From Leucoraja ocellata (lineage: Eukaryota): 64,000 nt of DNA. The translations under genes and the position numbers were made by a program. The notes under the pieces were generated by a model, which worked only from the letters and a program-made list of their open reading frames with translations, was not told where the DNA came from and made no database searches. Of this stretch, positions 1 to 60,922 are shown piece by piece (the stretch's first letter is position 1; every line of letters begins with the position of its first letter). The DNA is taken from contig JAWMAR010000070.1 in assembly GCA_036785375.1 (NCBI GenBank), positions 7,440,001-7,504,000 of the forward strand. Direction: 5' to 3'.

Positions 1-2
1 AT

Positions 3-167
3 GTTCACTGGAAGTTCGTGCAACGAAACGTCCTTTGGGAACAGGACGCCACGTTGCTCCTGACAGGTGTAAAAGAGGAAGATAAAGGGACGTATTCCTG
101 TGTTTGGATCAAGTATCGTCAGAAACCGGTATGTGAATTATTGATGCAGCTGATGATCTCTCACTGA
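3..167 (+). CDS. 3' end of a secreted single Ig-V-domain gene, subfamily A (5' part outside window)
   Basis: Frame from nt 3 reads VHWKFVQRNVLWEQDATLLLTGVKEEDKGTYSCVWIKYRQKPVCELLMQLMISH*. It matches the end of the 46129 copy with one synonymous difference seen. Confidence 0.85.
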   Translation, partial: VHWKFVQRNVLWEQDATLLLTGVKEEDKGTYSCVWIKYRQKPVCELLMQLMISH

Positions 168-1045
168 TTCAGCAGGGCCAGTCCCAGGGTCAGTAACAAA
201 GTCTAGTTTAGTTTAGTTTAGTTCCGTTCAGAGGTACAACAGGGAAACAAGCCCTTCGGCCACAGAGTCAATGGGGACCAGTGATCACCCCATATACTAG
301 TACTATCCCACACACTAGATACAATTTACACTGACCAATTAACCTACAAACCTGCACGTCTCTGGGGTGTGGGACGAAACCGGAGCTCCCGGATTCCAAA
401 GAGGAAGGAAGATTCCAAGGGGAGTTAGGGGCGACCGTGGCTGACAAGGGAAGTCAGGGACACTATCACAAATGCATTTCGTTGTCTCTGTTCTGTACAC
501 TGACAATGACAATTAAATTGAATCTGAATCTGATAAAAGTGAACAGGTATAACGTTGCAAAGATGAGCGGAAAGCCAGGGGATTAGGTAACTCTTTTAAA
601 GAGCAACAGAAGATAACTAAAAAAGCAATACGGGGAGAAAAGATGAGGTATGAAGGTAAGATAGCCAAGAATAGAAAGGAGGATCGTAAAAGCTTCTTTA
701 GATATGTGAAAAAAATTAGTTCAGACTAAAATTGGTCCTTTATAGACTAAAAACTTTGGATCCGTCTTCACTAAGGAGAACACAAACAATCTCCCTGATG
801 TACTAGTGGCCAGAGGATCTGGGGACAACGGAGAGCCAGTGGATGTAGTGTACCTGGACTTGCAGGAAGTATTTGATAAGGTCCCACATAGGAGATTAGT
901 GGGCAAAATTAGAGCACATGGTATTGGGGGAAGGGCCTGTTTCCATATTGTTTGACTCTGACACTAAGTAGGGAATAGTAAAGGTATAAAGATGAGCAGC
1001 GTGGAAGGTGTGAGCGTGGATCGCCTGCAGTGAGGAGAACTGACC

Positions 1046-1194
1046 TTGCTTGCACCGGTAAATGTACGTTTAATTTAAATAAACTTTCCTCTGCCTGCCC
1101 TGAAGACAGCCGGTGTGAGTGATTCTTTGTACGCCAGCATTGAGTTGGGTGTGAACTTTGTGCAACTTTTGCTCACTACGGGCAACATCGCCGG
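1046..1194 (+). terminator. Conserved poly(A) module of subfamily A (also 34443-34588, 40966-41114, 47477-47625)
   Basis: AATAAA at 1078, 34472, 40998 and 47509, each followed by GU-rich gtgtgagtgattctttgt...gttgggtgtg, about 850-900 nt after the stop codon. Confidence 0.6.
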
Positions 1195-1369
1195 ATTAAA
1201 GGGCCTGTCCCACGAGCATGCGACTCCATGCGGCAAGCGCGACCTAACGTGGTCACTTGAGCCGTACGGCCTCGCGGGGCCGGTCCCACTTTGATCGCCG
1301 GAGCCGTATGGAGTTGTGTGGAGCTGGTCCCGACATCGCGCGGGGCTCTGAAAAACTGAATATGTTAGG

Positions 1370-1650
1370 ATATGGAAACAGGTTCTTCGGCCCACCGAGT
1401 CTAACCCAACCAATGATCACCCCTACACTAGTTCTAACCTACCCACTAGGGACAATTTACTGAAGCCAATTAACCATCAAATCTACACGTCTTTGCAATC
1501 TGAAAGGGAACCAGAGCACCCGGAGGAAACCCACATGGTCCCAGGGACAATGTACATACACTGTACAGACAGTGCCCGTAGTTACCATCGAAGGCGGGTC
1601 TCTAGCGCTGTAAGGCAGCAACTCTACCGCTGCGCCACTGTACCGCCCCT
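1370..1650 (-). mobile_element. tRNA-derived SINE (HE1-like); copies in each tandem unit
   Basis: Reverse complement begins ggcggtacagTGGCGCAGCGGtagagttgctgcc (A-box). Body gtttgtaggttaattgg recurs many times in the window. Confidence 0.6.
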
Positions 1651-57343: not shown

Positions 57344-57660
57344 GGTTACCAGCTCCGGAGTCTCCACACAGGGTGACGGGGTTGGTCTTGTTCTCATCTC
57401 CTGCCATCGCTCGCTCCTTTTATACCGACTCCCGGCTTCTCCTGCCCCTCATTGTCTGCCCTCACGTACATTCAACCAATCACTGCCTCCCACGGAGCAT
57501 TGGCCGGAGTCAGCCGCGACCTCTCCACCCTCTGCCAAACGTGTCGTTGCATCAGCCGTTAACGTTTAACAAGAACAACGTCATCCCAGCAGCCAGTGGC
57601 CAACCAGGCGCCCCACACATCCTGCTTGTGTCTCCACCACGTCTCGTTCTGGTCAACCCA
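57344..57660 (-). promoter_or_regulatory. Family promoter and exon 1 (for the 55599 copy)
   Basis: TATA 57418-57424, ERSE 57476-57494. The upstream TGACGTGG segment is absent in this copy. Confidence 0.7.
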
Positions 57661-59483
57661 TCGGACCAGATGTCCCAGAGAAGAACATTTTCCAGAGGTG
57701 CCCTGGTACCACCAGTGTGACATTCATTGTATCTGCTGCAGTCAATGAGTGTGTTGTGTAGACAACCAGAGGAGAAGATGGGATTTATGTGGAGTTTCAT
57801 TTTGTAATCATTATTTATTTAATGTCATAGTGTAATAGAGTCATAGAGTGATACAGTGTGGACACAGGCCCTTCGGCCTTTTTGACCACCGTATCTACCT
57901 GCAACTGCATCTTCAAGGAACCATCTACCTTCACTCATAGATCCCTCTGCTCCACAACATTCCCCAGAGCCGGACTATTCACTGTGTAGGTCCTGCACAT
58001 GTTAGAAACATAGAAACATAGAAACTAGGTGCAGTAGTAGGCCATTCGGCCCTTCGAGCCTGCACCGCCATTCAATATGATCATGGCTGATCATCCAACT
58101 CAGTATCCCGTACCTGCCTTCTCTCCATACCCTCTGATCCCCTTAGCCACAAGGGCCACATCTAACTCCCTCTTCAATATAGCCATTGAACTGGCCTCGA
58201 CTACCCTCTGGTTCCCCTCTCCCCAAGATTCCCCAAAACACAACACCTCACATTACTCTGTATTAAATTCCATCAACCTTCCATCACACAGGGAGTGGTG
58301 AATCTCTGGAACTCTCTGCCACAGAGGGTAGTTGAGGCCAGTTCATTGGCTATATTTAAGAGGGAGTTAGATGTGGCCCTTGTGGCTAAGGGGATCAGGG
58401 GGTATGGAGAGAAGGCAGGTACGGGATACTGAGTTGGATGATCAGCCATGATCATATTGAATGGCGGTGCAGGCTCGAAGGGCCGAATGGCCTACTCCTG
58501 CACCTAATTTCTATGTTTCTATGTAACCGTTCCTCAGCCCAACTGGCCAATATTTCAGGATCCTGCTGCAATTTTTCACAACCATCTCCACTATCTGCAA
58601 AACCGCCTACTTTTGTGTCATAGAAACATAGAAAATAGGTGCAGGAGTAGGCCATTCGGCCCTTCGAGCCTGCACCGCCATTCAATATGATCATGCATGA
58701 TCATCCAACTCAGTATCCCGTACCTGCCTTCTCTCCATACCCCCTGATCCCTTTATCCACAAGGGCCACATCTAACTCCCTCTTAAATATAGTCATCTGC
58801 CTTTACTTTTGTCCCTGTTTTGTTCCTGACAACATTCCCCGTTATTTTTGTTCCTGTTCTCAACATCTGCGGACTCCATGATTTTCCACATGTTGTTCCG
58901 TCCCCGTGTGGTCATGGGCAATGTTGGACACAGCTCATAGAAGCCGGCGATGTTGCCCGTAGTGAGCAAGAGTTGCACAAAGTTCACACCCAACTCAATG
59001 CTGGCGTACAAAGAATCACTCACACCGGCTGTCTTCAAGAGAGTTTATTTCCATTAATGATACATTTACCAATGCAAGCACGATCTGTCCCATTGCACTA
59101 CATTTGCCCCATATCCCCCTAAACCTTTCCCTGTCCCAAGTGTGTATTAAATATTGTTACAATTCCCACCCCACCAGACAGTTCTATAAACCCACCGCCC
59201 CCTGAGTGAAAATGTTGCCCTTCAGGTTCCTATTAAATCTTGCCCCTCTAACCTTAAACTTATGTCCCCCTGGTTCTTGATTCCCGTACCCCAGGTAAAA
59301 TATGTTTTGTGTTCACCCCTCTATTCCCCTCATGATCAATTAAGTGACTACAATATAGAATGCTGTTGTTGGCCTAAGTGTGTGAAGTTTATAATGATGG
59401 ATGTTATTGTGTGTTTGTGCTGTCCTGCCACTGCCTGTTGCTTCTGTCACATGGGGGGGCCTGTGCTGGGTCAGTGTGAGGTT

Positions 59484-59999
59484 TCACTTCACTGTCAGCT
59501 TGATATTTTGTCTACATTCCCCTTGGCCAGTGATCCAAGTGCAGGAATACATCCCAATATCAGCCTCTTGTAAACCCGTGATGACCAATGTGGCATCCCG
59601 TTTCACATCCACTTTTGTTTCCTTGAACGTCCAGCGGCCGGGAGCCCCTGGATAGGTCGCACCTTTCCCTTTAGTAAACACGGCCAATGTCCTCTTCCCT
59701 TTACTCCAGGTGACCTCAAAACTCTTGGGTCCACCCTTCCCTGTGGGTACTTTACAGGGTAGCGTAGCAGAACCACCCTTGCTTGCCGTCACATCCGTGA
59801 ATTTCATCTTGGTCGCAGCTGGCCTAACACCGCATTCTGGAGAACTTTGTTTGTTGACTTGCCGAGGCTCCCGTGCGTTCCGCCCGGCCAAGTTTGCTTC
59901 CTCTCCCCATTCTCTGGAGATCGGACCTGTTCCAGTTGCGGAGACTTGCCACGCCATCTCCACAAGGACCATGAATCCTATCCATCTCTGCAGTCCCAT
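59484..59999 (-). CDS. Secreted single Ig-V-domain pro-protein, subfamily B (171 aa)
   Basis: Leader with EMAWQ and LAGRNAREPR|Q. V-set motifs intact. Confidence 0.85.
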   Translation of the reverse strand: MGLQRWIGFMVLVEMAWQVSATGTGPISREWGEEANLAGRNAREPRQVNKQSSPECGVRPAATKMKFTDVTASKGGSATLPCKVPTGKGGPKSFEVTWSKGKRTLAVFTKGKGATYPGAPGRWTFKETKVDVKRDATLVITGLQEADIGMYSCTWITGQGECRQNIKLTVK

Positions 60000-60573
60000 G
60001 TTCCTGTGGGTGAAACAATGGGTCACCTTATTGCAACTCAGTAGGATTCATGATGGCATTCCCTGAACCCGCCCAGAGTTGGGGAATCGAGAACCAGAGG
60101 ACATCGGTTTAAGGCGAGGGGGGGGGAAAGATTTCATGGGAAACTGAGGGGTGACTTTTTTACACAAAGGGTGGAGGGTGTTTGGAACGAGCTGCCGGAA
60201 GAGGTAGTTGGGGCAGGTACTATCACAATGATTAAGAATCAGTTAGACAGGTACATTGATAGGACAGGATTAGAGGGGTAAGGGCCAAACGCAGGCAGGT
60301 GGGTCTAGTATTGATGGGGACACGTTGGTGGGTGCGGGCAAGTTGGGCCGAAGGTCTCGCTGTGACTCTATGACTCCATCACTTGTCCCACCCCGGTCAT
60401 TCCTCCTTCTCCCTGGTCCTGTCTAGCAGAAGGTACAGAAGCTTGAAAGCGCGCACCACCAGACTCAGGAACAGCTTCTTCCCCTCTGCTATCAGGCTTC
60501 TGAACTGGGGGAACAGTGAACAGAGACAATCCCACCCCCATCACTCACAGACACTTGAAGGATCCACAGGGTT

Positions 60574-60922
60574 GGTTACCAGCTCCGGAGTCTCCACACA
60601 GGGTGACGGGGTCGGTCTTGTTCTCATCTCCTGCCATCGCTCGCTCCTTTTATACCGACTCCCGGCTTCTCCTGCCCCTCATTGTCTGCCCTCACGTACA
60701 TTCAACCAATCACTGCCTCCCACGGAGCATTGGCCGGAGTCAGCCGCGACCTCTCCACCCTCTGCCAAACGTGTCGTTGCATCAGCCGTTAACGTTTAAC
60801 AAGAACAACGTCATCCCAGCTGCCAGCGGCCAACCAGGCGCCCCACACATCCTGCTTGTGTCTCCACCACGTCTCGCTTTGGCCACCCATCGGACCAGAT
60901 GTCCCAGCCACGCCACGTCACC
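60574..60922 (-). promoter_or_regulatory. Family promoter and exon 1 (for the 59484 copy)
   Basis: TATA 60648-60654, ERSE 60706-60724, TGACGTGG 60913-60920 (rc). Confidence 0.7.

Follow-up and report, generated by a model that had tools for sequence, protein, structure and literature searches.

A tandem array of two-exon genes predicted to encode secreted single V-set domain proteins in the skate Leucoraja ocellata

The array and its extent

Positions 7,440,001 to 7,504,000 of contig JAWMAR010000070.1 (C70) in the Leucoraja ocellata assembly GCA_036785375.1, a stretch of 64,000 nt here called the window, carry repeated genes whose products have a single immunoglobulin (Ig) domain of the V-set type. 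The question raised by this locus is whether these genes belong to a described Ig family or form one of their own, and what their products would do. An earlier note, made from the letters of the window alone, had reported ten paralogs, and a six-frame motif search together with the open reading frame listing recovered them all, 6 on the plus strand and 4 on the minus strand. Seven were whole and intact, one was cut at the window start, and two (6113 and 51516) were frameshifted; the note's claim that every copy reads through thus stood for eight copies, including the one at the edge, and fell for the other two. As described below, the array was found to be positively selected and concertedly evolving. 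That the family is real, expressed and soluble is held with high confidence; that this tandem two-exon family supplies skates with germline-encoded, soluble binders or decoys directed at microbes or parasites is a reading for which, on the sequence evidence, the balance is about even.

A genome-wide protein search of the assembly gave 60 matches, and the gene set, defined by anchoring on the acceptor-ATG junction in the fetched regions, comprised 59 genes, 57 of them on C70 (6.99–7.52 Mb, within 525 kb) and 2 on contig C16, an extent of about 60 copies that the note had missed. Fifty-two of the 59 were intact, with 37 distinct proteins. The C70 block was present twice in tandem, including its unique flanks, at 97–99% identity (7.00–7.30 Mb versus 7.32–7.56 Mb), and the two blocks had 32 and 25 genes, encoding 22 and 20 distinct mature proteins, 9 of which were common to both. 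The doubling may represent an uncollapsed second haplotype or a real duplication, so that 25–32 genes per haplotype is the safe figure. The mature domains fell into 7 intact subfamilies, 27–51% identical to one another, while every copy found of the subfamily of window copies 2 and 8 was broken. A profile search of the fetched flanks revealed no further members.

Gene structure, splicing and start codon

Each gene possessed an upstream exon, absent from the layout in the note, in which a TATAAAA box was followed over ~105 nt by a GTGAGT donor, an intron of ~550 nt and a CACAG acceptor located 4 nt before the ATG of the coding exon; the latter alone carried the signal, pro-segment, V-set domain and stop. 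Homologues from Leucoraja had 31 additional N-terminal residues, which mapped to an exon ~550 bases upstream of every copy, and exon 1 was joined to exon 2 in 9 Leucoraja RefSeq models and in 1 protein of a 900-base public contig. This contig, known from its protein (202 codons) and its length, appears to be spliced because 900 bases are too short for 609 coding bases plus a 550-base intron, which points to transcription and splicing of at least one family member in some sample from a skate. The stop in 10 of 10 homologues had the same position as in the window genes, so that splicing into transmembrane (TM) or constant exons, which the note had named as grounds for refutation, was not seen among them. 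Donor-like sites in the last 60 coding bases were scored in 13 genes with a crude matrix, and none reached the score of the true exon-1 donor. Of 7999 candidates scored in a search for longer or fused forms, 71 were matches, and every one of these was a generic Ig protein (≤63 bits), which is weak evidence on this point. DNA contigs of three samples from three organisms covered both exons, running from the exons into the intron.

An upstream ATG was located 17 bases after the first T of the TATA box. Transcription usually starts 25–31 bases after a TATA box, so this ATG probably lies outside most transcripts. In 4 of the 59 copies, 2 of these being intact, the frames of exons 1 and 2 did not match, and the Rhinoraja model begins at MGLQ. 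Exon 1 is read here as a putative 5′ untranslated region, with translation from MGLQ. At two places (G000:C70:7260970 and 7512387), an orphan promoter and exon 1 were observed with a gypsy-like retroelement fragment within the intron and no coding exon found downstream.

Homogenised 5′ cassette and diversifying domain

Near-identity between subfamilies extended from ~870 bases before to 130 bases after the ATG. Among six subfamily representatives (15 pairs), DNA identity was 98.0% in the promoter, 99.7% in exon 1, 98.2% in the intron and 96.8% in the signal plus pro-segment, versus 61.4% in the mature part; likewise, synonymous divergence (dS) between subfamilies was 0.015 in the signal versus 0.64 in the mature part. 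Comparison with the distant C16 copy gave 65% identity for the intron, and 92%, 90% and 84% for the promoter, exon 1 and signal plus pro-segment, respectively. The 5′ cassette is apparently kept alike through gene conversion within the array together with purifying selection on the promoter and leader: the former because the intron consists largely of repeat remnants and can hardly be held by selection, the latter because promoter, exon 1 and signal plus pro-segment stay high against the C16 copy while the intron drops.

Within subfamilies, the ratio of nonsynonymous to synonymous changes (dN/dS) by counting was 2.2 for subfamily B (19 sequences) and 1.8 for subfamily A (14 sequences). Codon models gave an M0 omega of 2.74 (B) and 2.01 (A) and favoured M2a over M1a with likelihood ratio statistics of 82.8 and 30.7, values obtained with an own implementation on a fixed tree, with alleles of both blocks included and recombination unscreened; the counting result is independent of the tree. 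Of the 20 high-posterior selected sites in B, the model places 14 in the final part of the B-C loop, strands C, C′ and C′′ and the F-G loop, and 4 more between strands D and E. The C-C′-C′′-F-G face binds ligands in nectin- and CEACAM-type domains. The locus may offer a clean natural case in which gene conversion fixes a promoter-leader cassette while selection diversifies the adjoining domain; neither feature had been noticed in the earlier note.

Predicted protein products

All 7 whole intact window copies exceeded the curated cut-off of the Pfam V-set model (29–45 bits versus 26), in agreement with the one V-set domain per gene claimed before, and the frameshifted copy tested did not reach it. 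The hallmarks of the set were present, including the B- and F-strand Cys, the C-strand Trp, a DxxxYxC motif and strands A′BCC′C′′DEFG. Residues 1–21 were leader-like, with a hydrophobic core at residues 7–15 and a V-S-A site, and some copies had a single residue changed in the leader. No 19-residue window of the 2 proteins tested rose above 1.4 on the Kyte-Doolittle scale, consistent with the earlier statement that a TM segment is lacking, and the family products are predicted to be secreted. AlphaFold2 (AF2) models had mean confidence values (pLDDT) of 76.6 and 80.1, with residues 22–46 disordered and the domain confident from the first extra Cys onward. Four Cys were invariant in 25 of 25 aligned sequences, namely the canonical pair and two extra ones, the first within the N-terminal extension and the second where strand G begins; the extra two are probably bonded to each other, as suggested by the ordered short strand at the first of them in the model. 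The pro-segment ended in RxxR at residues 43–46 in 41 of the 52 intact genes, with the motif shifted by a deletion in 1 more, and in R-A-Y-F/W in the other 10. Its disorder and the RxxR motif are suggestive of removal by a protease. Subfamily A was cationic (net +5 to +13), and subfamily B was about neutral, mostly with N-glycosylation sequons. The prediction of a complex between subfamilies A and B, in which alignments were not used, scored 0.01.

Fold and sequence matches, including those from the AF2-based search that the note had proposed, were to the V domains of CAR D1, CD155, nectin-2, CD226, JAML and PD-L1 at 19–29% identity. The domain is thus, to judge from these scores, a generic adhesion-type V without a nameable parent, and these best matches from the CTX, nectin and B7 groups differ in being multi-domain membrane proteins. 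A search of the ESM Atlas gave generic V-set clusters only. A viral origin was considered and found unsupported, the viral Ig fold matches being generic (11–22% identity).

Occurrence and comparison with known systems

Word-based searches gave 7 clusters, all of them "uncharacterized" models of Leucoraja erinacea and Rhinoraja longicauda; these skate models and the one spliced public contig were the only homologues that turned up. Orthologues of several subfamilies were present in Leucoraja at 82–99%, and identity of the mature domain to L. erinacea reached 99%. A profile search of 1.84 billion representatives had 1 family member among the matches listed. Per-domain rescoring of the best 150 gave 148–200 bits for members versus ≤47 bits for outsiders. 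These best 150 were mostly multi-Ig proteins, and single-domain proteins under ~85 bits fell below the matches listed, so that weaker relatives with one domain, from sharks or rays, could lie beneath them. In the literature, no account of the family was found, and none of the 6 LOC identifiers searched, out of 10, occurred in a paper, supplements and subscription papers being outside the search; within the literature searched, the family is undescribed.

The note had held that the genes are not those of Ig, IgNAR or TCR, MDIR or VCBP, and the defining features of each, when tested, were lacking. The Ig, IgNAR, TCR, UrIg and UrIg2 genes of elasmobranchs share with the skate family a V-set fold of nanobody size, and UrIg2 has constant domains (PMC12227049). 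By contrast, the skate family lacks a J motif, a constant domain, a leader split from the V and any credible recombination signal sequence (RSS), its V being complete through strand G within one exon. The J motif [FW]GxG was present in 0 of the 52 intact genes. RSS-like sites (≤4 mismatches in 16) were observed in 13 of the 52 genes, all of one subfamily, with 3–4 mismatches and at or after the end of the domain; 12 of the 13 represent one common site past the stop with a 24-nt spacer. Against a background of 79 in 3000 random windows, these sites were taken as chance, and the note's statement that J motif and RSS are absent was upheld. At the end of copy 9 (window 55599–55640, minus strand), the last codons overlap an RSS-like site made up of a perfect heptamer, a spacer of 12 bases and a nonamer with 3 mismatches; the first base of the heptamer differs in the other subfamily A copies, and the site is probably a chance product of Leu-Thr-Val codons. 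Elsewhere in the assembly, >90 V-set exons were densely arrayed at many places on one contig (G000:C471), which is likely an antigen-receptor locus.

MDIR, CD300/TREM/pIgR and carp SITR (PMC3031540) are likewise multigene, non-rearranging V-type Ig superfamily members of fishes, SITR being soluble, whereas the skate family has one domain instead of two, no TM segment and neither the WC(R) motif nor the C-C′ disulfide. No TM or signalling exons like those of MDIR, NITR and CD300 were found, the stop coming after the V. The WC(R) motif with a C-C′ disulfide occurred in 0 of the 52 intact genes; one of the extra Cys precedes strand A′ and the other is found where strand G begins.

Bat PSG-like CEACAM proteins, described in PMC5594555 as secreted, expanded, effectively one-IgV proteins with selection on the CFG face and as proposed decoys, resemble the skate family in their lineage-limited expansion, effectively single IgV and diversifying selection on that face. 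PSG genes of the CEA family have separate leader, IgV and IgC exons, whereas leader, pro-segment and V are in one exon in the skate genes, which also differ by their pro-segment and extra Cys pair. CEACAM proteins were absent from the 60 PDB sequences and the 36 fold matches listed. One skate CEA-like expressed sequence tag is mentioned in PMC4079198.

The layout itself recalls secreted peptides. Precursors of conotoxins, defensins and frog-skin peptides have a conserved signal, an acidic pro-segment, a basic cleavage site and a hypervariable disulfide-bonded mature part. Here, the mature part is a 125-residue Ig domain without sequence relation to them, and the likeness is in layout alone. 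By analogy, the family's mode of action would come closest to that of the bat PSG-like decoys, with a prepro layout in the manner of toxins. The combination of a single coding exon, a pro-segment, a constant leader and a hypervariable Ig domain was unseen in the families compared. If the reading is true, an animal group central to the study of the origin of adaptive immunity gains a large family of secreted Ig-domain proteins not described before; the small V scaffolds, likely disulfide-stabilised, may also be of use in engineering.

Neighbouring chitinase genes

A further feature missed by the note was a large cluster of GH18 genes with CBM14 tails (C70 6.93–7.96 Mb, >12 genes), interleaved with the V genes (L005, L011-L012, L034-L038, L043-L044, L053-L056, L059, L073-L084); 57 of the 61 GH18 matches in the genome were in this interval. 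Chitinase exons were located within the array and at both ends, along with CBM14 exons and one three-CBM14 exon. The latter (L038:1820-2428, plus strand, with a twin at G000:C70:7564696-7565304) is one open frame with three CBM14 repeats after a hydrophobic stretch and may encode a secreted protein of the peritrophin type or else be the tail exon of a chitinase. The single GH18 exon tested was closest to acidic mammalian chitinase, an enzyme reported from the stomach in mouse, chicken and marmoset. No V-to-CBM14 fusion was found, the CBM14 exons mapping to separate chitinase-type genes, nor was any promoter common to the V genes and the chitinases. Capture of the promoter or leader from a chitinase gene was considered and rejected, there being no match outside the V genes in the ~860 kb fetched. 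To the left of the C70 array were a BTG gene and a small leucine-rich-repeat gene, and the C16 pair was flanked by a troponin and a PH-domain gene; both sets of neighbours fit the gene order of human 1q32.

The VCBPs of amphioxus and Ciona (PMC4757023) also have germline V-type domains; they are secreted and tied to gut chitin biology, and here chitinase and CBM14 genes are interleaved with the array. In VCBPs, the V domains are joined to a chitin-binding domain at the C-terminus, whereas the single skate V ends in a stop.

Proposed function and alternatives

In the mechanism proposed, a common TATA promoter, kept alike through gene conversion and purifying selection, would drive all copies in one secretory tissue. 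Translation would begin at MGLQ, the signal would be cleaved after VSA, and the acidic, disordered pro-segment of ~25 residues would be removed at R-x-P-R (or R-A-Y-F/W), freeing a domain of ~14–15 kDa in which a disulfide of the two extra Cys likely ties strand G to the N-terminal extension. The C-C′-C′′-F-G face would bind fast-changing foreign ligands, subfamily A acting as a strongly cationic binder and the other subfamilies being neutral or acidic and mostly glycosylated. Because acidic-chitinase-like genes are interleaved with the array, the gut or another mucosal site is the best, though weak, guess for that tissue. The list of functions in the note (innate binder, gland or venom component, reproductive protein) was narrowed only indirectly. 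An ampullary-gel role was considered and dropped, no link being found in the passages of PMC8379299 consulted. It is rather improbable, though conceivable, that skates possess a second, non-rearranging antibody-like system in which 25–30 protease-activated single-V "innate nanobodies", made together from one gene-converted promoter-leader cassette, are secreted with the chitinases and the chitin-binding protein of the cluster, a split and independently evolved vertebrate counterpart of the VCBP gut defence of protochordates.

Several points weigh against soluble binders shaped by selection. Hydrophobicity of the leader is no more than moderate, with a best mean of 2.2 over 9 residues, and a Glu lies within it, and the extra disulfide was deduced from the order of the model, not read from coordinates. 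The codon-model p-values are optimistic for the reasons of method given above, and gene conversion can inflate codon tests. The linkage to chitinases may merely reflect a duplication-prone neighbourhood, as the C16 copies sit between the troponin and PH-domain genes.

The upstream ATG is a further such point, being in frame in 55 of the 59 copies and also on the spliced public contig, and for these reasons an in-frame upstream start is retained as a rival. Proteins begun there would have a cytoplasmic tail of 31 residues, with the hydrophobic stretch serving as a type II anchor, and would be small V-domain surface receptors or ligands, membrane-anchored or retained in the cell; the Leucoraja RefSeq models do include the 31 residues. 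This is very unlikely: the ATG is 17 bases from the start of the TATA box, upstream of the usual start site at 25–31 bases, the frame is broken in 2 intact genes, the Rhinoraja model is without the 31 residues, and the 19-residue hydrophobicity at the leader is just 1.2.

Evidence on expression also counts on that side. A poly-A RNA run of a related skate (tissue not given), of which ~6 in 100 was read, had 0 depth on both exons, although the intron repeats were covered and the DNA run of that skate contains the genes. The result is mild evidence against broad expression and agrees with restriction to certain tissues. It is also what would be expected if the copies were mostly silent duplicates produced by segmental duplication in a repeat-rich region, or inflated in number by assembly error; about half of them may indeed be a second haplotype, given the block present twice at 97–99%. 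Such an explanation is extremely unlikely in view of the 52 intact frames among 59 at 27–51% identity between subfamilies with invariant core residues, the Leucoraja orthologues of several subfamilies, the spliced contig, and the coverage of both exons by DNA contigs of three other samples.

Finally, strong positive selection suits reproductive proteins and venoms equally well. A role in reproduction, as a seminal, clasper/alkaline-gland, oviducal or egg-jelly secretion that diversified under sperm competition, through the recognition of mates or gametes, or in guarding the embryo within its egg case, would leave the same signature in dN/dS and codon models, a single gland would suit one common promoter, and zero reads in one RNA run fit narrow expression. 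V-set domains serve in gamete recognition, and the family is so far known only from egg-laying skates. No reproductive gene was found in the flanks scanned, where the neighbours are chitinases, and this role is judged a genuine possibility on the unlikely side. A skin-gland, chemical-signal or defensive secretion, acting as a pheromone-like identity code or a deterrent, would agree with the prepro layout, in which a conserved leader precedes a hypervariable mature domain as in conotoxin and frog-skin precursors, and the putative extra disulfide would stabilise an external secretion. Nevertheless, no toxin-family match was obtained in Pfam, PDB or fold searches, and skates are not known to have a venom gland, making this quite unlikely.

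Features of the window

The coordinates of the ten copies and their upstream exons are listed in Table 1.

Table 1. V-set genes and their 5′ exons in the 64,000-nt window
Feature	Position	Strand	Remarks
Copy 1, subfamily B, 3′ part of coding exon	1..167	+	ATG 369 bases before window; gene intact in genome
Copy 2, TATA box to exon-1 donor	5444..5549	+	
Copy 2, coding exon, frameshifted before F strand	6113..6660, end approximate	+	First-frame stop at 6562; DEGIYSC in other frame at 6558
Copy 3, subfamily A, 171 aa, signal/pro-segment/Cys extension/V-set	12152..12667	-	Mature part net charge +11
Copy 3, TATA box to exon-1 donor	13258..13363	-	
Copy 4, subfamily A, 170 aa, intact	28969..29481	-	
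Copy 4, TATA box to exon-1 donor	30032..30137	-	
Copy 5, TATA box to exon-1 donor	32440..32545	+	
Copy 5, subfamily B, 179 aa, intact	33093..33632	+	
Copy 6, TATA box to exon-1 donor	38955..39060	+	
Copy 6, subfamily B, 179 aa, intact	39614..40153	+	
Copy 7, TATA box to exon-1 donor	45472..45577	+	
Copy 7, subfamily B, 178 aa, intact	46129..46665	+	
Copy 8, TATA box to exon-1 donor	50853..50960	+	
Copy 8, coding exon, several frameshifts and a stop	51516..52060, end approximate	+	Same subfamily as copy 2
Copy 9, subfamily A, 171 aa, intact	55599..56114	-	Intron ~1.2 kb
Copy 9, TATA box to exon-1 donor	57319..57424	-	
Copy 10, subfamily A, 171 aa, intact	59484..59999	-	
Copy 10, TATA box to exon-1 donor	60549..60654	-	CCAAT-like boxes upstream
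Copy 10, example of homogenised ~1 kb 5′ cassette	59870..60892	-	97-98% identity with opposite-strand cassettes of other subfamilies

Retroelements were also present. Gypsy-like gag-pol fragments, decayed and duplicated along with the gene units, were located at 9726–11549 and 53380–55116 (plus strand). The plus-strand open frame of 744 codons at 20072–22306 encoded a reverse transcriptase, which we take from its sequence to be of the CR1/LINE type. At 61864–64000 (plus strand), Gag-like and reverse-transcriptase frames, still open at the window end, presumably belong to a DIRS-type retrotransposon, a name likewise given from the sequence alone.

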